DNA of 64,000 bases from an uncultured bacterium (GTDB lineage Bacteria > Fidelibacterota > Marinisomatia > Marinisomatales > JAHJCW01): positions 15,607-79,606 of the forward strand of contig CAZWKR010000006.1 of assembly GCA_964634215.1 (NCBI GenBank), written 5' to 3'. Position numbers and translations under genes: made by a program. Positions within the stretch are counted from its first letter, which is position 1; each line of letters starts with the position of its first letter. Shown here piece after piece: positions 6,801-38,715 of the stretch. The notes under the pieces are model-generated. The model did no database searches and was not told where the DNA came from. It saw only the letters and a list, made by a program, of their open reading frames with translations.

Positions 6801-6891
6801 AAACCCCTCTTTTAGAGGGATTTGTCGTCAATATATCAAGCGTGGCTCCGGGCGGAATCGAACCACCGACACAAGGCTTTTCAGGCCTCTG
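6801..6891 (-). repeat. Direct repeat, left copy: terminator region plus the 3'-terminal 49 nt of tRNA-Phe (truncated tRNA, attachment-site-like)
   Basis: 6815-6891 is identical (77/77 by hand alignment) to 14232-14308. Similarity continues leftward through 'acccctct' with a 1-nt indel in the hairpin loop. Identity stops at 'ggcctctg', inside the anticodon stem. Confidence 0.9.
6805..6819. terminator. Hairpin CCCTCT-TTT-AGAGGG; probable original terminator downstream of tRNA-Phe, convergent with the PAS gene
   Basis: Perfect 6-bp stem read directly. Lies 24 nt after the PAS ORF stop and 23 nt from the truncated tRNA 3' end. Confidence 0.5.
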
Positions 6892-7250
6892 TTTCACCGT
6901 CGTGAACCATATTTTTTCTGCCGTTTTTCCACCTGAAGGGTGCGGAAATAATACATTTTTATAGTTCCTAAAACATATCCCCAAACAAACGGACCAATAT
7001 AAGAAAGCTAGAAGAAAATGTTATTTAATTTTATCTGATTATATTTTTTTGATTGTTTCTATACTTGGGGACAATCCCTAGGACAATTAATAGTTTTTCA
7101 CACTACTAAAAACCTGTTTATATTTATGACATGTTTGTCTTAATATCAATATATAAACTATATGATATAATTGATATAAATGTATTAACATTCACTTGTC
7201 ATCAAATGATAAATGATGTTGATTAAATTCCGATTCTTGGTATTTTTTTA

Positions 7251-7640
7251 ATGAAAACAGCGATTAAACGTAACGCAAATTTTATATTTGTACTTACTGC
7301 ACTATTATTCTCAGTGCAGATTGTACTTCAATCGGGTCCTATTGCCAAAAGAGTGATTATAAACGGCGAATCTATATGTACTTGTGGATGTGGACATACT
7401 ATTGCGAAATGTGCAGAAAATCATGGTAGTAAACATAGTAAATGCAGTTGCCAACATGAGAAAGATGAAATAATCCATTATATTTTCACACAAAATATCA
7501 TCGGGGATATCATCATTAATCAGGACATTCCATACTATTTTAAAAAGACTCCGGAATTATTTTCTATTGAAGAATTATTGCAATTTGATCAATTTATCGC
7601 AAATATTTATAGCCCGCCCCCCCAAATAAACCTTGTTTAA
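7251..7640 (+). CDS. Small exported or membrane-anchored protein with a dense Cys/His cluster (putative metal-binding)
   Basis: N-terminal hydrophobic segment 'FIFVLTALLFSVQIVL'. 'CTCGCGHTIAKCAENHGSKHSKCSCQH' holds 6 Cys and 4 His in 27 residues. It is the first gene of the operon. Confidence 0.5.
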   Translation: MKTAIKRNANFIFVLTALLFSVQIVLQSGPIAKRVIINGESICTCGCGHTIAKCAENHGSKHSKCSCQHEKDEIIHYIFTQNIIGDIIINQDIPYYFKKTPELFSIEELLQFDQFIANIYSPPPQINLV

Positions 7641-7740
7641 TTTAGGCGACTGCTAGCTTCAAAGCGGAAAAATCAATCTAATTAATTCAATGTCCTGAAT
7701 AATAAAGGAATGGACATTTGTTATCATAAATGAGGTTAAC

Positions 7741-9978
7741 TTGAAAATAATTAAAATAATTTTGTACTGTACGTGGTTTGCTACAGTTCAAATTTTTGCG
7801 CAGCAAACTGCGACTATTAGTGGTGCGGTATTAGATAAGCAAACAAATGAAGTCTTGAGCTATGCACAAGTAGTATTGGTTGGGACAACGATGGGCGCTA
7901 CCACCGATGAAAACGGTCAATTTCATATTGTGGTGTTGAAATCAGGGATATATGAAATCAAAACAACTATGATGGGATTTTCACCTCAGAGCATTAAGGC
8001 TAAAGTTGAAAATGGTTCGGAAGTAGTAGTTACGTTTAAACTACAACCCACTGTACTGGATGCGGATGAGATCTTTGTCACCGCAACCAAAATGGACAAA
8101 GCCGTTAAGAATATAGGTGGAGCGGTTTATATGATTCAGGAAAGTGAATTGAGACAAAGTGATAGTCGCAATATACAAGATGTTCTTACGAGAGTTCCGG
8201 GTGTCTTTACTCAGGATAAATTTCACAATGAACACAATGTTGTTACATTTCGCGGAGTTGGGTTACATACTTATGTTACCCGCGGAATTCTGGTTCTTGT
8301 AGATGGAATATCGGTCAATGAAGCGATGGGTCGTTCTGTTTTTGAAGGAATTAATCTGGAGAATGCTGAGCGAGTTGAAATTCTTAAAGGACCTGTATCC
8401 GCTTTATATGGTCCCAATGGAATTACAGGAGTTATTAATATTATTACCAAAAAAGCACCTGAGAAATTAGACGGTTCATTGAGCTACACTAATGGTGCAT
8501 ATAACTCAAAACGCTTTTCAGGTCAACTAGGTACAACATTTGGCAAGACTGGTGTTTATGCAAATGCATTAGTTTATTCTTCTGATGGATACATGGATCG
8601 CAATGCATATGACACAAAAAAAATTAACACACGTTTATCATCAGAATTTGATATGCTCGGATCATTAGATCTAACTTTTGATTATACAGAATCAACGATA
8701 GACTATGCTGGTTCATTAACTCGCGAACAATATGAGAATGACGAGACTGCCGGAACAAGTAAATATACTGGAAGTGAAAAACAGTTAATGCGTCTCGGAC
8801 TTAGAAGTGTAAAAGATTTGAACAAAAAATCACATATAGCCAGTAACATTTATTATCGCAGTCGTTTTGATCAGGGACATTACATGGACATCCGGTATGG
8901 CGAAAGTGATCTTAATCTTCTAGGTGGTGAGATCCAGCTACAGTCCAAAATTATGAAAGATAAGATTAGATATGTGGTTGGAGCCAGTCATGATCGGGAA
9001 ACAGGTGATTCGCAAACCTATAATCGTGATGAAGATGGTATAGTACAGGATTTAATTGGAGACGGCACAAGCAACTACAATATCAGTGGTGCTTATACTC
9101 AAGCTGATGTTTCAATACTTACTAATCTTACAGCGATATTAGGCATTCGTTATGATAATGTAGCCTATGACTGGCAGGATAATTTTCTGCCGGACAGTAG
9201 TAACACATCCGCGAGTACCACCATTGGTGCAGTAAGTCCAAAGTTTGGTATTGCCTATAATCCATTTGAACTAATGACAATTTTTGGTAACTGGGGACGT
9301 GGTTTCAATCCACCCGAAATGGACCAGCTGTTTAGTTCTGATTCTGAAAGCAATCCTGACTTGAAACCGGAATACTTAACTAATTATGAAATTGGAATCC
9401 GTGGTCGTTTAGGACCTCGTGTTAATTATCAAATCTCAGCCTTTAAAATGGATTTTGTTGATCAGGTTGTTAAGGATGAAGAGACAGATTACTATGAAAA
9501 TATAGGAAACACAGAACATAAAGGACTTGAAACATCAATTAATGCCATGATTATGCAGAATATGATGATTTATCTAAACTATTCCTATCTCAAAGCCTCT
9601 TTTGTTGACCATCCCCTATATGAAGGCAATGCATTGGTAAAGATACCTGAAAATCAAATAGGCGCAGGTGTAAGAATGACATTGCTTAATGATCTTACAG
9701 TAAGTCTTGATTATAAGTGGATGGATAAATTTTTCATGGATAATGAAGAAACAAATATATACGATGGTCATAGTGTTGTTAATGCTAAAATGCGATACAA
9801 TTACAAGCGTTATCATGTTGCGTTAAGCGTTGATAATTTACTGGACACCCACTATGCTTCTTCTGCAGCAGCTAGGTATGCAATTATTAACTATAGAACT
9901 CGGGAATATGGCTGGATAGAAAGTTTCTACCCAGGCTGGCCTCGTAACTTCAACCTAACAATTGGAATTGATTTCTAA
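7741..9978 (+). CDS. TonB-dependent outer-membrane receptor with N-terminal carboxypeptidase-regulatory-like domain
   Basis: TTG start after 'gagg'. Signal peptide '...VQIFA|QQ'. CarbopepD_reg-like 'ISGAVLDKQTNEVLSYAQVVL...TDENGQFHI'. Plug motifs 'RVEILKGPVSALYGPNGITGVINIITK'. C-terminal aromatic 'IGIDF'. Confidence 0.85.
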   Translation: MKIIKIILYCTWFATVQIFAQQTATISGAVLDKQTNEVLSYAQVVLVGTTMGATTDENGQFHIVVLKSGIYEIKTTMMGFSPQSIKAKVENGSEVVVTFKLQPTVLDADEIFVTATKMDKAVKNIGGAVYMIQESELRQSDSRNIQDVLTRVPGVFTQDKFHNEHNVVTFRGVGLHTYVTRGILVLVDGISVNEAMGRSVFEGINLENAERVEILKGPVSALYGPNGITGVINIITKKAPEKLDGSLSYTNGAYNSKRFSGQLGTTFGKTGVYANALVYSSDGYMDRNAYDTKKINTRLSSEFDMLGSLDLTFDYTESTIDYAGSLTREQYENDETAGTSKYTGSEKQLMRLGLRSVKDLNKKSHIASNIYYRSRFDQGHYMDIRYGESDLNLLGGEIQLQSKIMKDKIRYVVGASHDRETGDSQTYNRDEDGIVQDLIGDGTSNYNISGAYTQADVSILTNLTAILGIRYDNVAYDWQDNFLPDSSNTSASTTIGAVSPKFGIAYNPFELMTIFGNWGRGFNPPEMDQLFSSDSESNPDLKPEYLTNYEIGIRGRLGPRVNYQISAFKMDFVDQVVKDEETDYYENIGNTEHKGLETSINAMIMQNMMIYLNYSYLKASFVDHPLYEGNALVKIPENQIGAGVRMTLLNDLTVSLDYKWMDKFFMDNEETNIYDGHSVVNAKMRYNYKRYHVALSVDNLLDTHYASSAAARYAIINYRTREYGWIESFYPGWPRNFNLTIGIDF

Positions 9979-10972
9979 GGGTTATACGTTGAAAAATTTA
10001 ATATATATTTTTTTGGTATCGGTCTTGTTTGGAGGGACCGGTACTAATGCTGTTTGGTTGTCACAGATTCCACCACCAGAGCGAGCGAAACAAATTGTAT
10101 CTTCAGGCATGCATCGTTTACCCACAGTAAAAAAGAGAGGTCGTGGCCCGGTGATACTAGCACTATGGTTGCGTCAGGGAGAGTCTATTTTAGATGCAAA
10201 ATATGTAGACCGGACCAACTTTGATAGTCTTAAAACCACGCTCCTTTCACCTAATGGTGAAGCAATCGAACATAATCTCTCTAAAGTTGAAGGAGGGCTA
10301 GAATTAACGCTAAGTGGCTCGGATGAGGGTTTTTATAATGCCTTCCTCATTGGAAAAAAACTTGAAGGTGAAACACTTATAGTTTCTACCGTGCAGTCAG
10401 AATTGATAAATCACAGTTGTCGTAATGGACATAAACATGTTTCCCGTAGTTTGGGACCATTTTATGGAGGTGATAGTATTCCACTAGAAATAATTAGGAA
10501 TCGTATTCGATGGGAAGATTTTCATACAGTCATTAAATCCGGTGATGTAATTGAATATCAACTGTTGTTATATGGTCAGCCTATATCTGGCATAAGAGTG
10601 ACAATGACAACCCATCAAGGTTGGCAGAAATCAAAATTTACCAATAGTGAAGGAAAGGTTAGTTTTGAATTTATAGGAGAATATTTTGGCAGGGACAAGG
10701 AATTTCACAGTCGCGATATGTATCATTACTTATTAGTAGCAGATTATTCTGTTCCTGAATCTGGGCAATTTATGAAGAAATCTTATCAAAAGATTAGGTA
10801 CCAAAGTACGGTTTCTGAAAAGTACAGAGCAGCTACTGAAATCTATACATCCACCGTTTGGGGATTATTTATAATGTTTGTAACAATGGTGATTGTTGGC
10901 TTGAGTATTTTTATTTATCGGCGGAAAACCAGTCGTGATTATAGGGAAATAGTATTCGATGAAAAAGATTAG
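9962..10972 (+). CDS. Periplasmic protein with N-terminal signal/anchor and C-terminal TM anchor (DUF4198-like Ig/transthyretin-type fold suspected)
   Basis: Overlaps the receptor stop; an alternative TTG lies at 9989. 'GDVIEYQLLLYGQPISGIRVTMTTHQGWQKSKFTNSEGKVSFEF' resembles DUF4198/CarboxypepD_reg beta-sandwich segments. C-terminal TM 'WGLFIMFVTMVIVGLSIFIY'. Confidence 0.45.
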   Translation: MELISKGYTLKNLIYIFLVSVLFGGTGTNAVWLSQIPPPERAKQIVSSGMHRLPTVKKRGRGPVILALWLRQGESILDAKYVDRTNFDSLKTTLLSPNGEAIEHNLSKVEGGLELTLSGSDEGFYNAFLIGKKLEGETLIVSTVQSELINHSCRNGHKHVSRSLGPFYGGDSIPLEIIRNRIRWEDFHTVIKSGDVIEYQLLLYGQPISGIRVTMTTHQGWQKSKFTNSEGKVSFEFIGEYFGRDKEFHSRDMYHYLLVADYSVPESGQFMKKSYQKIRYQSTVSEKYRAATEIYTSTVWGLFIMFVTMVIVGLSIFIYRRKTSRDYREIVFDEKD

Positions 10973-11954
10973 CACAATTCTAAATAACGGAAATATTAAT
11001 CGTTTCCGTACCATTGTTCAAATACTTACATTTATTTTACTTATGTACGGTGGTTTGGCTCATATTTCAATCAGTGAGCGAATCCCCACCTTTGCTTGTC
11101 CATATAACCCTGCTAGTGGAGGAACCTGCTATTTGATCGCAATTCAACATCAGCTTCACACTACTTTTGCCAACTTAGCCAGCTTCAGTGGAATTGCCAT
11201 ACTAACGGGACTGGGATTATTTCTTATGTTTTTTCTATTTTTAAACAAAGCCTGGTGTGGCTTTATCTGTCCGCTGGGAACAATTCAAGATTGGATAACT
11301 GGTCTTCGACGGAAGTTGGGTTTTCGGTTTGCGCGGTACGAGGACAACAATTTTAAGAGATTAAAGATTATTAAGTATTTGTTATTAGCATTATTAATTA
11401 TCATTTCCTTGGGCATGAGTAATTCATTTTTTGGATTACCAAAAATCTCACATGATATGTCATCACCTTTTTGTCAAATTTGTCCAGGGCGAACAGTATT
11501 ACCAATATTTGCTGGTGATACTACCCAACTCGTTATTGACTTCAGTTCAACTACTACTTTGATAATGTCCGCACTAGGTATGATAGTTACGGGTCTCTTC
11601 CTGGTTGGTGCTTTTGTGAAAAAGAGATTTTTTTGCCTGTTTTGTCCCATGAGTGCTTTACAATACATCTTTTCAAAATTTGCATTTTTACGATTGATTA
11701 AGGATGGGGAGAAGTGCACCAGGTGTGGAAACTGTTCACGAGTTTGCGACGTTGGTATCAAAGAAATTGCTGATGACGTCGTCAGTAAAAACATTGTTAC
11801 TGATGATTGTATGATGTGTTTTAAATGTGTTGGAGCTTGCCCTGAAAAGGATTGTCTTAAAGTAAAATTTGTTACATTGCCACTTTTTACGGCTACAGAG
11901 GAAGGTTTTTTTAAACGCTATGAAGCGAATGAGAATAAAGAGATTACACTATGA
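10959..11954 (+). CDS. Integral-membrane polyferredoxin (NapH/MauN/NosR-C-terminal family, 4Fe-4S binding)
   Basis: 'WCGFICPLGTIQDW' (CX3CP) and 'FFCLFCPM' motifs between TM helices. Two ferredoxin motifs, 'CTRCGNCSRVCD' and 'CMMCFKCVGACPE'. 14-nt overlap with the upstream ORF. Confidence 0.75.
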   Translation: MKKISTILNNGNINRFRTIVQILTFILLMYGGLAHISISERIPTFACPYNPASGGTCYLIAIQHQLHTTFANLASFSGIAILTGLGLFLMFFLFLNKAWCGFICPLGTIQDWITGLRRKLGFRFARYEDNNFKRLKIIKYLLLALLIIISLGMSNSFFGLPKISHDMSSPFCQICPGRTVLPIFAGDTTQLVIDFSSTTTLIMSALGMIVTGLFLVGAFVKKRFFCLFCPMSALQYIFSKFAFLRLIKDGEKCTRCGNCSRVCDVGIKEIADDVVSKNIVTDDCMMCFKCVGACPEKDCLKVKFVTLPLFTATEEGFFKRYEANENKEITL

Positions 11955-13219
11955 ACAATGGAAATCAGAGATATGAGCGTCAGAAAATATTAGCTCGGAA
12001 ACGCTTTAAGCAAGAAGGTCAACGCTGTTTGCAGGATTTAACACAAGATGGCAGAAACCATCCTAACGGAATGAAATATTTTTATGATCGATATCGGGAT
12101 CTTCTGGAAGAATCGAACAAAACCAACGATAAGCCGGTTGTGGCTTCCATGTGCATACACGTACCGGCAGAATTAATCTATGCTTTGGGTGCCCGACCAG
12201 TACGAATCTGTGCCGGAGTTCATGTGACTGACACTATTGGGGCAGAATATTTGCCAGCCAAAACTTGTCCACTTGTAAAATCAACGCTAGGAGCTATTCA
12301 CATGGATATGCTGCCAATAAAGAGCGAACCGATTATGACAGTTAATCCCACAACCTGCGATCAAAAACGTAAGTTGGGAGAAGTGACAGCAGAACTTGGT
12401 AAAGAACTTTACACCATTGAATTGCCACCAACTAAGGATTCAGCAGAAGCTCGGGAGTATTGGTTGCGAGTAGTAAAGAAGTTCACACTAGTCTTAGAAG
12501 AAGCTACCGGACAGAAATTAACGAAGAAGAAATTGAAATCTGCTATCAGCTTAGTTGCCAAGGCTCAGGCAGAATATAGGCGGTTCCATCAATTGCGACA
12601 ACAGGGAATAGTAATTAATGGAAATGATGCTCTCCTGGTAACTAATTCCCACTTCTTTGATGATATTGAAGCCTGGACAATTGCCTTAAAAAAATTAAAT
12701 ACTGAACTTGAGAAAAGACTTTCTGAGGATAAATGGGTGGTTCCAAAACAGACACCACGCATATTGATTACTGGATCACCATCAATTTTCCCAAATCTAA
12801 AACTACCGTTACTAATTGAACAATCAGGTGCAGTAATTGTCGAGGATGAATTTTGTAGTGGTAGTCGCTTGCTCCACGATACCGTAGCTGTCGATGAGTG
12901 GTTTCTCTATGATATGATCCCAGCGATAGCAGACCGTTACTTAAAACCTAGTACCTGTCCCAACTTCACACCGAACGAAGATCGGGTTCGAAAATTATTA
13001 ACGTCCATCAAAGATTTTAAAGTCGATGGTGTGATCTATCAATCTTTTGCAGGTTGTCAGTTATATGAAATTGAGTCGCTGAGCATTGGAAAAACACTAG
13101 AACGAGAGGGTGTTCCAATGCTATATGTAGAAACTGATTATAATCCGGATGATGGTGGGCAATTATCAACCAGAGTTGAAGCCTTTATAGATGCTCTGAA
13201 TGGAAAAAATTCATACTAA
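11951..13219 (+). CDS. 2-hydroxyacyl-CoA dehydratase / BcrC-BadD-HgdB family Fe-S protein present as a single subunit (double-cubane-cluster-protein-like)
   Basis: ATGA overlap with the polyferredoxin gene. 422 aa with conserved-looking Cys positions ('MCIHVP','AKTCPLVKS','TTCDQKRK','EFCSGSR','STCPNF','FAGCQLYE'). Sits directly upstream of an activase gene. No second paralogous subunit is present. Confidence 0.7.
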   Translation: MNNGNQRYERQKILARKRFKQEGQRCLQDLTQDGRNHPNGMKYFYDRYRDLLEESNKTNDKPVVASMCIHVPAELIYALGARPVRICAGVHVTDTIGAEYLPAKTCPLVKSTLGAIHMDMLPIKSEPIMTVNPTTCDQKRKLGEVTAELGKELYTIELPPTKDSAEAREYWLRVVKKFTLVLEEATGQKLTKKKLKSAISLVAKAQAEYRRFHQLRQQGIVINGNDALLVTNSHFFDDIEAWTIALKKLNTELEKRLSEDKWVVPKQTPRILITGSPSIFPNLKLPLLIEQSGAVIVEDEFCSGSRLLHDTVAVDEWFLYDMIPAIADRYLKPSTCPNFTPNEDRVRKLLTSIKDFKVDGVIYQSFAGCQLYEIESLSIGKTLEREGVPMLYVETDYNPDDGGQLSTRVEAFIDALNGKNSY

Positions 13220-13222
13220 GGA

Positions 13223-14023
13223 ATGACAATGCATTATTTTACAGGGATCGATATTGGATCCACATCAATAAAAATCGCAATCATCGATGATAGTGGTAGG
13301 TTAGTGAATAGCATTACTACGCCCACTGGTAGCCGTTTTGCTCAGAATACCGTTGATGCTCTAAATCGGTTACTTTCAGAAGTTGGGATTTCTCCGGATG
13401 ACAATGCATATACTATTTCCACTGGTTATGGACGCAAATTATTTAAGGCTGGTGACGAAGCCGTCAATGAAATTACTGCCAATGCAGTTGGTGTTAAGGC
13501 AATGGGCTCTGAATATAGGAGCATTAGGACTATTATCAACGTAGGTGGTCAGGATTCAAAGGTGATACGGTTGAAATCAGATGGAAGTGTCGACAAGTTT
13601 GCTATGAATGATAAATGCGCCGCCGGTACAGGTCGTTTTCTGGAAATTGCAGCTCGTAATTTGGAAGTTGATATTGCTGAGTTTGCCAATCTTCATCTTA
13701 CAACGAAAGAATTATCCTGTCAGGTGAACAGCACTTGCGCTGTATTTGCAGAATCAGAACTCATTTCACTATTAGCAGCTGGCAATGATAAAGCTACAAT
13801 TGCAGGGGGAGTTCACGAATCCATTGCTCGGCGTTTGAGTCGTTTAGCTGCTCGCGTGGGTCTATCTGAAGATGTACTGTTCGATGGTGGTGCAGCCATT
13901 AATGGTGGAATGATTAAAGCACTTGAAGACGAGTTAATGGTGCCGTTGATAATTGCTGCTGATCCTCAGACTACAACTGCCATTGGTGCAGCAGTTATGG
14001 CAAAAGACCGATGGAAGAATTAG
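13223..14023 (+). CDS. BcrAD/BadFG/HgdC-type ATPase ('CoA-substrate-specific enzyme activase', archerase)
   Basis: ASKHA phosphate-1 motif 'GIDIGSTSIKIAII'. The two cluster-bridging Cys contexts 'NDKCAAGTGRFLE' and 'NSTCAVFAESE'. 266 aa. Confidence 0.85.
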   Translation: MTMHYFTGIDIGSTSIKIAIIDDSGRLVNSITTPTGSRFAQNTVDALNRLLSEVGISPDDNAYTISTGYGRKLFKAGDEAVNEITANAVGVKAMGSEYRSIRTIINVGGQDSKVIRLKSDGSVDKFAMNDKCAAGTGRFLEIAARNLEVDIAEFANLHLTTKELSCQVNSTCAVFAESELISLLAAGNDKATIAGGVHESIARRLSRLAARVGLSEDVLFDGGAAINGGMIKALEDELMVPLIIAADPQTTTAIGAAVMAKDRWKN

Positions 14024-14124
14024 ATGTACAGGTATGATACCATCCTAAGATATTTAACTAATAAAGTTGTAATAAGCAGGGGCGTTATTAGAAATTAGAA
14101 ATGACGGAAAAATATCTCTAAAAA

Positions 14125-14137
14125 AGGCCTCTGCTCT
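14125..14137 (-). repeat. Isolated 13-nt fragment of tRNA-Phe (anticodon-stem/D-arm region) inside the island's right arm
   Basis: 'aggcctctgctct' equals 14300-14312 of the intact tRNA. It is followed by sequence resembling the stretch that follows the left truncated copy (see findings). Confidence 0.4.
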
Positions 14138-14211
14138 TTTTTCCTCACCCTTCAGCCTTGAAGCATGAGGAAATAATGAAATTTCCCCATTTTTCCCCTA
14201 ACTTCTCAGAC

Positions 14212-14237
14212 AAATAAAAAACCCCTCTATTGAGGGA
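14212..14237 (-). terminator. Rho-independent terminator of tRNA-Phe
   Basis: On the minus strand: CCCTC-AATA-GAGGG followed by G+TTTTTATTTG, 23 nt past the tRNA 3' end. Confidence 0.7.
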
Positions 14238-14308
14238 TTTGTCGTCAATATATCAAGCGTGGCTCCGGGCGGAATCGAACCACCGACACAAGGCTTTTCA
14301 GGCCTCTG
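14217..14308 (-). repeat. Direct repeat, right copy (terminator + 3' 49 nt of the intact tRNA-Phe)
   Basis: See the left copy. 14232-14308 is identical to 6815-6891. Confidence 0.9.
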
Positions 14309-14332
14309 CTCTACCAACTGAGCTACAGAGCC
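14260..14332 (-). tRNA. tRNA-Phe (anticodon GAA), 73 nt, CCA not encoded
   Basis: Reverse complement is GGCTCTGTAGCTCAGTTGGTAGAGCAGAGGCCTGAAAAGCCTTGTGTCGGTGGTTCGATTCCGCCCGGAGCCA. It folds by hand into a 7-bp acceptor stem, GCTC/GAGC D stem, GAGGC/GCCTT anticodon stem with loop CTGAAAA, and GGTGG/CCGCC T stem with loop TTCGATT. Confidence 0.93.
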
Positions 14333-34656: not shown

Positions 34657-35015
34657 TACTCCACCTTTTGCATCTGCATTTTTATATCTAGGCTTAATCC
34701 AATTGATTATATAACCAACTGTTCCGCGATAAACTATTATCCGGATTACCTATTTATTATTCGGGAAGAAAGAAACGAAGGGAGGTAAAAAAATTTTGTA
34801 TTTTTAAAAATGTTTCAAATATCGGTAAAAAAAAATAAACTTATTAGTCCTTCAAGCCTTTCAAACCCTATTGAAAAGTACAAGCTATTGCGATTTTCTT
34901 CAAGAAAAATAATGGTTTTGTTTTGGTAGAGTATGATTAAATTCCTTTTAATATTTTGTCGTGATTTGCGCTTGATTGCTGCGACATTAAAAAAGAGCTA
35001 AAATGGCAAGAGATT

Positions 35016-35043
35016 GCCTCGTTTAGCGCGAGGTTTTTTTATT
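35016..35043 (+). promoter_or_regulatory. Terminator-like hairpin + T7 run in the metH leader (possible attenuator)
   Basis: CCTCG(35017-21)/CGAGG(35029-33) followed by TTTTTTT, ending 3 nt before the ATG at 35044. It shares C35017-C35018 with an upstream GGCAA-GAGA-TTGCC hairpin. Confidence 0.3.
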
Positions 35044-38000
35044 ATGAACAATATTTACAAAATTGCAAAAAATAGAATTTTAATTTTGGATGGTGCCATG
35101 GGTACAATGGTTCAGTCTTATGGATTAAATGAAACAGACTTTCGCGGCAAACGATTTCAAAACCATTCAATAGATTTAAATGGTAATAATGATATTTTGT
35201 CTTTAACGAAACCAAAAATTATTAAAGAAATTCATTCCAAATATCTATCTGCCGGTGCTGATATAATATCAACTAATACTTTTAACGCTACAAAAATATC
35301 TCAAGCGGAATATGGGGCAGAATCATATATCACAGAAATAAATTATGAATCGGCGAGACTTGCACGAGAAATTTCTGATAAGTTCACCAAAAACACACCG
35401 CAAAAACCCCGCTTTGTAGTCGGTGTTCTGGGACCGACAAATCAAACAGCCTCGATGTCAGCCGACGTGAGCGATCCGGGAGCTCGAAATATTTCTTATG
35501 ACGAACTGGTTGTGGCTTATTCCGAAGCGGCTAAAGCGTTAATAAAGGGTGGCGTCGATATATTAATGGTGGAAACTATTTTTGACACATTGAACGCTAA
35601 AGCTGCATTATTTGCAGTTCAATCGATATTTGACGAAATTGGTTACAGTGTACCTGTTATGGTTTCCGGTACCATTACCGATGCAAGTGGTAGAACTCTA
35701 TCCGGACAAACTTTAGATGCCTTTTATTATTCTATGAATCACATTCCATTATTTTCAGTTGGCTTAAATTGTGCGTTTGGTGCTGAACAACTCCGACCAC
35801 ATATAGCAGAATTATCGCATATAAGCGATAGTTTAGTGAGTTTTCATCCTAATGCTGGTTTACCAAATGAATTAGGTGAGTACGACGAATCGCCTAAGCA
35901 TATGGCTACATTAGTGAGCGATATTGCCAAAAGAGGATTGATTAATATTGTTGGTGGATGTTGTGGGTCGACCCCTGAACATATCGCGGCAATCGCTAAA
36001 GTAGTAGAAAATGTTAATCCACGCAATATAGAAAAAAAGAAAAATTTTACATTTTTGAGTGGTTTAGAATCTACTGTCATTAGAGATGATTCTTTATTTG
36101 TTAATGTTGGTGAAAGAACAAATGTTGCGGGTTCAGCAAAATTTCGACGCTTGATAAAGGAAGAAAATTTTAGTGAAGCATTAAGTGTTGCTCGAGATCA
36201 AATAGAGGGTGGCGCACAGATCATTGACATAAATATGGATGATGCAATGCTTGATTCAGTTTCTGTAATGGAAAAATTCCTGCGTCTGATTTCAGCAGAA
36301 CCGGATATTGCCCGGATTCCTATAATGCTTGACTCGTCTAATTGGACAGTTTTGGAAACCGGCTTAAAAAATATACAGGGTAAGGGAATTGTCAACAGTA
36401 TAAGCTTGAAGGAAGGTGAGGCGAAATTTATTGAGCAGGCTGAATTGATTCAAAATTATGGCGCCGCGGTAATCGTGATGGCGTTTGATGAAAAAGGTCA
36501 AGCTGACACCTATGAACGTAAAATGGAAATTATTGAGAGCAGCTACCATATACTTACTGAAAAAGTTGGTTTCTCACCGGAAAACATTATTTTTGATCCA
36601 AACATTTTTGCCGTAGCTACCGGCATCGAAGAACATAATAATTATGCCGTGGATTACCTTAACGCTTGTCGAACAATTAAAGAAAAATTCTCAGGGTGTT
36701 TGGTTAGTGGAGGTGTAAGCAATTTGTCGTTTTCATTTCGTGGAAACAACACAATTCGTGAAGCGATGCACTCGGCATTCCTTTATCACGCAATCCAAGC
36801 TGGAATGGACATGGGAATTGTAAATGCCGGACAATTAGTTGTGTATGATGATATCCCTGATGAACTTCGCAAAGCAGTAGAAGATGTTATTCTTAACCGC
36901 CGTAGCGATGCAACTGACCGTTTATTGACTATCGCTGATAAATATAAAAGTATTAAAAAAGTTGAGGTTGCGGAGCAAAAATGGCGGAGTGAATCGGTTG
37001 AAAAACGGGTTGATCATGCCTTGGTTGAGGGAATTTCCGATTTTATTATTGATGACATCGAAGAAATCCGACAAAGCGTTGATGATCCGGTGAAGATCAT
37101 CGAAGGTCCATTAATGGATGGAATGAACAAAGTTGGTGATTTGTTTGGTTCTGGAAAAATGTTTTTACCGCAAGTAGTAAAAAGTGCCCGGGTTATGAAA
37201 CAAGCCGTAGCGTATTTGGAACCTTTTATTGATGAATCACAAGCTAATTCTGCCGGTTTGAAAGCAAAGCCGAAAATCGTTTTGGCAACCGTAAAAGGTG
37301 ATGTACACGACATAGGCAAAAATATTGTATCGATAATTTTGCAATGTAATAATGTCGAAATTATTGATCTGGGCGTGATGGTTCCGACGGATAGAATCAT
37401 CGCAACTGCGCAAGAGGTTAACGCCGATATGATCGGATTAAGCGGACTTATCACGCCCTCGCTTGTGGAAATGGAACACGTAGCAGCAGAAATGCAGCGG
37501 CAAGGATTGGAAATTCCACTGTTGATTGGCGGGGCGACGACATCGCAATTGCACACAGCGGTGAAAATTGCGCCAAACTACGGCAACGCAGTGGTTTACG
37601 TACCGGACGCGTCACGCAGCGTATCAGTTGTATCGGACTTACTAAGTAAAACACGCCGAAAAGAATTTTTAAAATTGTTGAATGAAAAGCAGCAAGAAAT
37701 ACTGATAAGATATGCTGACCGAAAACGACCAACTGTATTATTATCACTTGCTAACGCAAGAAAAAATAAATTTGATTTTGATTGGGATAGATATACACCG
37801 CCCATTCCAAAATTTAGTGGTATCAAAGTTTTTGATGATTACTCGATAAATGAATTAATTGATTATATTGATTGGACACCTTTCTTTTCAACTTGGGAGT
37901 TGAAAGGTAAATATCCTGATATTTTGGATAGTTCAAAGTTCGGTGAGCAAGCTCAAAAATTATTTGATGATGCACAGGTTTTGTTAAAGAAAATATCTAA

Positions 38001-38715
38001 GGAAAAACTATTACAAGCTAAAGGCGTATTTGGAATATTTCCGGCAAATTCAATCAATGAAAATATTGAAATATATTCCGATAAAAATATAATTACTGAA
38101 TTGCATCACCTGCGTCAACAAGTTAAGAAAGCAGCTGATAAACCAAATTTTTGTTTATCAGATTTTATTGCACCAAAATCAAGTGGTAAGAATGATTGGA
38201 TTGGCGCATTCGCTGTTACCACCGGTATCGGCGTAAAAAAGTTAGTTAAAGAATATGAAAAACAAAATGATGATTATTCCGCTATTATGGTCAAAGCCCT
38301 TGCCGATAGATTAGCCGAAGCATTCGCCGAACGGTTACACCAAAGAGTCCGCCAAGAGTTTTGGGGCTATGCTGCGGATGAAAATTTACAAAATGATGAT
38401 TTGGTTAAAGAAAAATATCAAGGAATCCGACCTGCTCCGGGTTACACTGCTTGTCCTGACCATTCCGAAAAGCAGAAGATTTGGGATTTACTTGATGTTG
38501 AAAAATATACCGGAATTACCTTAACTGAAAGTTATGCGATGAATCCGGCAGCGTCAGTGAGCGGGTGGTATTTTGCCCATCCGGAATCAAAATATTTCAA
38601 TGTCGGCAAAATTACAAAAGAACAAGTTGTAGATTATGCTAAACGCAAGAATATGAACATTTATGATGTAGAAAGATGGTTAGTGCCAAATTTAGATTAT
38701 AATTTTGAAAAGTAA
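35044..38715 (+). CDS. metH: Cobalamin-dependent methionine synthase, full length (Hcy, pterin, B12-binding and AdoMet-activation modules)
   Basis: '[10 protein letters not shown]', '[11 protein letters not shown]', '[11 protein letters not shown]' B12 motif (DxHxxG), '[12 protein letters not shown]'. The ATG at 35044 gives a canonical N-terminus. The track ORF starts at TTG 35014. Confidence 0.93.

Follow-up and report, generated by a model that had tools for sequence, protein, structure and literature searches.

A probable integrase-less island at the tRNA-Phe gene of an uncultured Marinisomatota (SAR406) bacterium

Classical genomic islands and prophages at tRNA genes carry tyrosine integrases of the P4 or lambda type, the pheV and pheU islands of Enterobacteriaceae being examples. 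We describe here a 7.4-kb segment beside the tRNA-Phe gene of an uncultured Marinisomatota (SAR406) bacterium. It lies within a 64,000-nucleotide (nt) stretch of DNA (assembly GCA_964634215.1, contig CAZWKR010000006.1, positions 15,607 to 79,606 of the forward strand), which we analysed as a whole and call the window, and positions 6892-14308 of it are probably an island that integrated at tRNA-Phe and lacks an integrase, belonging to a family of small integrative islands with this target in the phylum. Cis-mobilizable elements (CIMEs), whose structure the segment has, were first described for islands related to ICESt1 and ICESt3 in Streptococcus thermophilus, according to PMC5704250, with Pavlovic et al. 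(2004) and Bellanger et al. (2011) as its sources. In overall biology, the closest described system is the group of ssrA-specific genomic islands of Dehalococcoides, of which 16 of 31 carry an integration module (McMurdie et al. 2011, PMC3146451).

As CIMEs are presented in PMC5704250, the segment resembles them in the apparent loss of its integration genes, the retention of both attachment (att) sites, the flanking direct repeats of the target gene's 3′ end, and tandem accretion with related elements, which here occurs in two relatives (L095 and L097; related loci are cited by number throughout). It differs from the CIMEs described there in its target, tRNA-Phe, and in its host, an uncultured phylum of the Fibrobacterota–Chlorobiota–Bacteroidota (FCB) group. 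As in Dehalococcoides, the islands are small, specific to a lineage and placed downstream of a single small-RNA gene, whose 3′ end supplies the direct repeats; tandem arrangement is frequent, an integration module is present in only part of the islands, the cargo is anaerobic redox or respiratory, and the sequence beside the repeat is conserved. Whereas the Dehalococcoides islands rely on the serine recombinase DsiB, the gene for transfer-messenger RNA (tmRNA) and a 20-bp repeat (PMC3146451), the family described here has a tyrosine integrase, a tRNA-Phe target and a 77-nt repeat that takes in the anticodon arm, T arm, acceptor strand and terminator. We found no description of such islands in Marinimicrobia in the literature.

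A duplicated tRNA-Phe segment

The only tRNA gene of the window is a tRNA-Phe(GAA) on the minus strand (14259/14260-14332), on which ARAGORN and Rfam agree. Direct reading and a repeat finder both showed that part of this locus recurs without a single difference (6815-6891 and 14232-14308, 77/77 nt), and an exact repeat of this length in 64 kb is beyond chance. The block comprises tRNA positions 25-73, that is, the last 49 nt of the gene (14260-14308 in the right copy), together with 28 nt of 3′ flank. It sits within an ungapped match of 98 nt at 91% identity (6801-6898 against 14218-14315), in which mismatches are confined to a hairpin loop (CCCCTCTTTTAGAGGG versus CCCCTCTATTGAGGG) and to sequence past the break in the tRNA. 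The hairpin at 14219-14240 is a diverged copy of the left hairpin at 6804-6819, and both score as terminator-like on both strands.

The left copy lacks tRNA positions 1-24 and reaches 25.3 bits in Rfam, below the tRNA threshold of 29. Both copies are made of the 3′ part of the tRNA, and one of them completes the intact gene, the arrangement known from tRNA islands. The left copy is the displaced 3′ part of the target gene, that is, the distal att site; on the standard integration model, the right copy was brought in by the element. An earlier note, made from the letters of the window, had described the identical 77 nt, the similarity further to the left, the intact right tRNA-Phe(GAA) on the minus strand, the truncation of the left copy and the reach of the repeat past the tRNA. 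These observations hold, with the cut now placed at tRNA position 25, the exact block running 28 nt into the 3′ flank and the wider similarity continuing through the terminator hairpin.

The acceptor-stem pair 6-67 of this tRNA-Phe is U·G in the window (T6, G67) and G-C in L084, L090, L091, L098 and L099. G67, shared by the truncated copy of L096, falls in the 3′ half that the element presumably brought, so the change in the 5′ half of the tRNA could be compensatory.

Conserved junctions and an empty site in related loci

We located relatives through RdgB homologues (49-88% identity) on contigs with the tRNA-Phe-RdgB-SprA backbone, and scanned metagenomes with a pattern that matched the tRNA-Phe 3′ half only where it did not run on into the 5′ half. 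The scan returned L095, L096 and L097, and BLAST added a second truncated copy in L095. The tRNA breaks off after ...CAGGCCTCTG (tRNA position 25) in the window, in L096, in L097 and in copy 2 of L095, whereas copy 1 of L095 breaks 2 nt earlier. All four truncated copies of the relatives run on into an arm homologous to window 6892-6998, and the left flanks of L095, L096 and L097 are mutually unrelated. Independent insertions therefore share a break point. That one break and one arm recur together across differing host flanks is the hallmark of site-specific recombination and excludes accidental duplication.

An empty site is preserved in L098, a 92-kb contig of the Joint Genome Institute (JGI). 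Between its Metallophos gene and an intact tRNA-Phe lie 184 nt, RdgB follows, and neither arm motifs nor the terminator module are present. The genes upstream in L098 have their orthologues to the left of the occupied site in L096 (81% and 87% amino acid identity). Given this orthology and the lack of arms in L098, the two loci form an empty and occupied pair, and the arms belong to the element. The pair comes from a sister lineage and concerns a flank other than that of the window.

In L097 the order is proximal arm, terminator, tRNA 3′ half and distal arm, the configuration that would be expected of an attP-type junction or of a junction between tandem elements. Its arms are of the window's subtype (87.5% identity over 216 nt), and its cargo differs, comprising a MarR regulator, a multihaem cytochrome c and a molybdopterin oxidoreductase. 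L097 also accounts for the presence of a terminator in the repeat, because the att site of the element family carries the 3′ flank of the tRNA and the terminator. Two truncated tRNA-plus-arm units lie 4.56 kb apart in L095, an arrangement that indicates tandem accretion.

Copy 1 of L095 sits between a stand-alone gene for a B12-binding domain and a homocysteine S-methyltransferase gene (191-817 and 1316-2212); the two genes resemble fragments of one MetH-type methyltransferase that an att site now separates. Four Logan contigs from different runs (L001, L089, L101 and L087) start inside the tRNA-Phe 3′ half or the arm, which suggests that the repeat is widespread among populations. L087 opens with 30 nt that are reverse-complementary to part of the tRNA and may be an assembly artefact.

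A rare tyrosine integrase and its probable loss

In five relatives (L084, L085, L086, L091 and L094), whose RdgB is 49-84% identical to that of the window, a tyrosine integrase of 401-472 amino acids is encoded directly past the 3′ end of the tRNA. It matches phrog_1, annotated 'integrase' (E 1.6e-20), and shows weak similarity to PF00589 across the whole catalytic domain. The family is very rare, with 14 clusters among 5.8 billion proteins, and no relatives of it were found in viral contigs or in the phage collection. The only matches to PHROGs came from this integrase in the relatives. In L091 an excisionase-like HTH_17 gene lies upstream of the integrase gene, and the element further encodes a 433-amino-acid protein, for which the sole match is Sigma70_r3 (E 2.3e-7), and unknown proteins.

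The window has no integrase at the corresponding, tRNA-adjacent end of the island. Pfam scans of the main open reading frame (ORF) at each position, which took in nearly all ORFs of at least 100 amino acids, with SprA and a few short shadow ORFs set aside, returned housekeeping or cargo families alone and no recombinase in the 64 kb. A hidden Markov model (HMM) of the relatives' integrase likewise found no match in the six frames of the window, in agreement with the earlier note, which had seen no recombinase between the repeats or elsewhere.

Stages of integrase loss are visible in other relatives. L099 and L100 retain the last 25 integrase codons only, directly before the arm (68% identity to residues 376-400 of L091, E 2e-4), and in L090 the integrase is wholly gone and the arm is kept. 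The stubs mark the route of decay. Together with L090 and L095, they indicate that integrase-less derivatives with retained att sites are common in the family, the island in the window being one of them. By analogy with these relatives, integration genes would once have been present in the island, and the integrase is probably missing through deletion. We considered L090 as an empty site and rejected it: the arm is kept, and its genes for proteins of 160 and 94 amino acids also occur in the integrase-bearing locus of L091. In L099 (877-1070) the proximal arm is present in perfect tandem, with a 97-nt period, 2.0 copies and 100% identity.

An integrase homologue in L093 (2122-3600, 54-57% identity) adjoins a cluster of tRNA-Leu, tRNA-Cys and tRNA-Gly instead of tRNA-Phe. 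The ORF as called runs into the predicted tRNAs, and this branch may have a different target. L094 has a tandem duplication of about 70 nt just past the 5′ end of tRNA-Phe (1937-2206), which takes in the tRNA 5′ end (GAGCTACCGAGCC) and is followed by a run of N. This is probably a scaffolding problem at a repeat.

Attachment-site arms

Both copies of the repeat and both conserved arms, and hence attL and attR, are present in the window. In all integrase-bearing loci, the distance from the integrase stop codon to the tRNA terminator is about 180-230 nt, and the sequence is conserved. In the window, homology to this stretch starts about 10 nt past the stop codon of the last cargo gene, an activase, at a point that corresponds to roughly 115 nt downstream of the integrase end in L084 and L091. 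The cargo operon therefore occupies the place where the integrase would be expected. The distal arm is kept beside the truncated tRNA-Phe copies of L095 (both copies), L096 and L097; in the roughly 100 nt past the truncated tRNAs, tandem TTTCCACC boxes are followed by CTGAAGGGTGCGGAAA.

A 19-nt motif, CTGAAGNNTGNGGAAAWAA, has three copies in the window, all at the ends of the island (0.18 expected by chance): the distal arm has one copy and the proximal arm the other two, inverted relative to each other. Among 101 loci, a pattern near-identical to it matched at att arms only. In the proximal arm the inverted CTGAAG..GGAAA pair occupies 14137-14155 (minus strand) and 14158-14176 (plus strand), and the arm also holds TTTCCCC repeats. 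We rejected the possibility that the conserved stretch of about 180 nt beside the tRNA is an RNA or regulatory element of the host: Rfam is empty there, the empty site L098 lacks the stretch, and in L097 a truncated copy has it on its left.

Within the proximal arm, 13 nt at 14125-14137 (AGGCCTCTGCTCT) equal tRNA-Phe positions 21-33 and span the break point in its intact-tRNA configuration. L084, L086, L091 and L097 conserve these 13 nt, and L090 and L099 have them in degenerate form; they could be an additional core-type site of the integrase or a relic of an older junction. A dispersed repeat of about 60 nt (..GTCCCAAAACAAACGGCTAATTTGAGTGTGCCAAAAACG..), found in L095 (916-984, 1206-1261, 2222-2284 and 5484-5540), L090 (2183-2240) and L097 (303-348), makes up the outer distal arm and also lies elsewhere in these genomes, with no full match in the window. 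It may be an element of the repetitive extragenic palindromic (REP) type or resemble a miniature inverted-repeat transposable element (MITE).

Proposed history of the island

The relatives show the layout of the element's att site: tRNA-proximal arm, terminator, last 49 nt of tRNA-Phe, distal arm. In the genome of the window, a lineage-specific tyrosine integrase would have recombined such a site with the chromosomal tRNA-Phe gene, at or near the anticodon arm. Under the standard model, a complete tRNA would have been rebuilt from the 5′ part of the host gene and the element-borne 3′ part (14232-14308), and the displaced 3′ part of the host would have come to lie at the far side (6815-6891). 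The integrase and excision module, which in relatives lies directly to the left of the proximal arm, would then have been lost with both att arms retained, with a break about 10 nt past the stop codon of the activase gene. The remnant is built like a CIME and is unable to move on its own. The identity block begins on the 5′ side of the anticodon stem and fits the anticodon-loop class of tRNA integration sites, a sublocation reportedly distinguished by Williams in 2002.

The earlier note had read the duplication as an attL/attR footprint and had offered a decayed island as one explanation. The integrase at the expected place in relatives, the shared break point and the lack of arms at the empty site bear out the footprint, and the integrase stubs of L099 and L100 favour decay. 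Two features had seemed atypical to that note. The terminator in the repeat is carried by the att site, and the missing integrase would be explained by deletion.

Cargo, flanks and composition

Six plus-strand genes lie between the repeats (Table 1); all six frames are intact, and the last five genes are tightly packed or overlapping. The operon combines a TonB-dependent receptor, a NapH-like membrane ferredoxin, a double-cubane reductase with an activase, and two proteins without a family. We found no link between double-cubane proteins and TonB uptake in the literature. The reductase scores 349.9 bits against NF040772, for which the cut-off is 350, and its closest solved structures are 6ENO and 7YYL (E about 2e-70). 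The earlier note had held that an island would be the wrong interpretation if all relatives shared the syntenic cargo. The operon is absent from this site in every relative's locus examined, so the arrangement is not an old fixed feature.

Table 1 Features of the tRNA-Phe locus (window coordinates)
Feature	Position	Strand	Description
Left terminator-like hairpin	6804..6819		Common to the convergent PAS gene (stop 6781) and the truncated tRNA copy
Left (distal) 77-nt copy	6815..6891	-	28-nt tRNA 3′ flank (6815-6842) and truncated tRNA-Phe (6843-6891)
Distal att arm	6892..6998	+	TTTTCCACC and CTGAAGGGTGCGGAAATAA (6925-6951)
Cargo gene 1	7251..7640	+	129 amino acids; N-terminal hydrophobic segment, Cys/His-rich motif, no family match
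Cargo gene 2, TonB-dependent outer-membrane receptor	7741..9978	+	CarboxypepD_reg, Plug and beta-barrel domains
Cargo gene 3	9962..10972	+	336 amino acids; small uncharacterised family, 159 clusters among 1.84 billion representatives
Cargo gene 4, NapH/MauN-like 4Fe-4S ferredoxin-type protein	10959..11954	+	NapH-like
Cargo gene 5, double-cubane-cluster reductase	11951..13219	+	HGD-D fold
Cargo gene 6, BcrAD/BadFG-type ATPase activase	13223..14023	+	TIGR00241
tRNA-proximal att arm	14035..14216	+	78-88% identity to the DNA between integrase stop and tRNA terminator in L084, L086, L091 and L097
Terminator hairpin of the intact tRNA-Phe	14219..14240	-	Element-type loop variant, as in L097
Right (tRNA-proximal) 77-nt copy	14232..14308	-	Identical to the left copy
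Intact tRNA-Phe(GAA), target gene	14260..14332	-	ARAGORN, Rfam

The island is flanked by a PAS-domain protein on the left and by RdgB and then SprA on the right. The composition of the cargo differs modestly from that of the host. Its GC content is 0.38, against 0.351 +/- 0.025 for the other genes, with 0.30 against 0.25 at third codon positions, and the two highest-GC genes of the window are cargo genes. The tetranucleotide distance of the island is among the highest of comparable window segments, by a margin that is not wide. The compositional comparison that the earlier note had proposed thus gives a cargo that is modestly richer in GC.

Elsewhere in the window, a SAM-II riboswitch match (SAM_alpha, RF00521; 34948-35022; 41.9 bits, gathering threshold 36) stands directly upstream of a gene for B12-dependent methionine synthase (35014-38715), in a host phylum other than the one that gave SAM_alpha its name.

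Alternative explanations

Several observations weigh against an island that integrated by the standard scheme and then lost its integrase. Neither L084 nor L091, both integrase-bearing, has a second tRNA copy within the 4-7.5 kb available, and a complete integrase-bearing element with both ends was not seen among the loci. In the window's own lineage, neither an empty site nor an occupied sister was found, the closest sampled RdgB being 88% identical, and a search with the PAS protein was swamped by generic PAS repeats and returned no orthologue. The window holds no integrase stub, so that deletion is argued by analogy, and a cassette that already lacked an integrase may have integrated in trans. 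Composition, too, gives a modest signal. SRR8146440, whose Logan assembly encodes proteins identical to those of the window, has the locus in three contigs: left flank, island and right flank each end inside the repeat, the island being a separate contig of 7,400 bp with both ends in it. This graph fits the integrated form and an empty site plus a circle equally. A scan of genome contigs with RdgB gave identities of at most 54%, with Neomarinimicrobiota metagenome-assembled genomes (MAGs) that lack a neighbouring tRNA as the best matches; it yielded the phylum, Marinisomatota (also Neomarinimicrobiota), and no close synteny.

The most substantial rival concerns the activity and history of the island and not its kind. 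The segment may still be mobile, as an att-flanked cassette that is moved in trans, or in cis after accretion, by the integrase of a related element located elsewhere in the genome or in the community, its own integrase perhaps never having been carried in this genome. Both arms are complete, with all three copies of the arm motif intact, and the identity of the repeats points to recent integration. That identity (77/77) spans a 28-nt flank outside the tRNA and a tRNA fragment under no selection. Unless gene conversion has kept the copies identical, the rule of three puts neutral divergence since integration below about 4%, and the insertion would be much younger than the split from any sampled relative. 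This leaves room for a cassette that entered in trans and had no integrase gene. Arms of the same subtype at the attP-type junction of L097 (87.5% over 216 nt), the tandem arrays of L095 and an assembly graph compatible with co-existing excised forms are all in keeping with mobility. Against this, no integrase lies within 64 kb, and L097, whose contig begins 183 nt upstream of the tRNA part, may carry an integrase beyond that point. We regard continued mobility, which the earlier note had also listed as mobilisation in trans, as a possibility to be taken seriously, if on balance unlikely.

Two further explanations would remove either the insertion or the recombinase. The chromosome might simply read PAS-terminator-tRNA-Phe, with the 7.4-kb segment (a separate circle, a piece from elsewhere or the DNA of another strain) threaded in through the 77-nt repeat by the assembler. 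The repeat is a node with two paths in and two out, beyond the reach of short k-mers, and L003, L002 and L001 end in it (window 6844, 6862/14261 and 14296). The 144-kb NCBI contig from which the window is taken nevertheless runs through both junctions, and L095 and L096, from other assemblies, pass from host flank through truncated tRNA into arm, which makes integrated forms real. A 7.4-kb circle with no replication or recombination gene would not persist, and similarity to plasmids or phages is absent, all of which makes an artefact very unlikely. The absence of an integrase from the window, and a repeat that reaches the terminator and offers enough homology for recombination, might alternatively suggest that the duplication arose here by other means, either as an illegitimate or chance event or by import of an already occupied locus through homologous recombination in the flanks. 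Illegitimate events would not reproduce the same break in three independent copies, with a fourth only 2 nt away and the same arm in each, and the conserved junction refutes that version, as it does the different duplication mechanism that the earlier note had entertained. A family-specific integrase occupies the site in relatives, and an imported island would still be an integrative element in origin. We hold an origin other than site-specific recombination in this genome to be very improbable. The reading that we prefer remains an integrase-less island at tRNA-Phe.

Relation to described elements and implications

The arrangement at tRNA-Phe has much in common with classical tRNA islands: an identity block that starts 5′ in the anticodon stem and extends beyond the tRNA 3′ end, an integrase beside the rebuilt tRNA, and repeated arm motifs on both sides of the core. 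Unlike them, the family has a very rare integrase with weak similarity to PF00589 and no phage or plasmid relatives, and the copy in the window has no integrase at all. Family scans found no relaxase or conjugation family between the repeats or elsewhere in the window, and neither a conjugation module nor a relaxase was recognised in the L091 element. PHROGs matched nothing beyond the relatives' integrase, and scans of viral contigs (with the integrase and two att patterns) were empty. When the phage collection was queried with the integrase and plasmids with the island, nothing relevant came up either, and an origin from a plasmid or phage was rejected. Because no conjugation, mobilisation or phage gene was found in any member of the family, membership among integrative and conjugative elements (ICEs), integrative and mobilizable elements (IMEs) or prophages is unsupported. 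In this respect the family is unlike the CIMEs of PMC5704250, and descent from an ICE or IME is likewise unsupported.

A more speculative idea, which we think doubtful, is that the tRNA-Phe gene of Marinisomatota serves as a cassette platform, at which att-flanked redox modules are swapped and stacked by one rare, lineage-specific integrase acting in trans. The modules would be a double-cubane reductase with a TonB receptor in the window and a molybdoenzyme with a multihaem cytochrome in L097, which would itself be a circular or tandem intermediate of an integrase-less cassette. The 13-nt stretch at 14125-14137 would serve as an extra binding site for the recombinase or as a secondary target. 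If true, such a platform would provide a fast route for the exchange of energy metabolism in an uncultured ocean lineage.

The locus is a textbook case of a decayed island of the CIME type and leaves current models of mobile elements unchallenged. The att sequences and the integrase family given here could be tested, or could serve to detect flexible gene content in metagenomes. The relatives document a hypervariable, integrase-serviced hotspot beside tRNA-Phe in the Marinisomatota (SAR406), an abundant uncultured marine phylum in which redox operons travel on small att-flanked islands.

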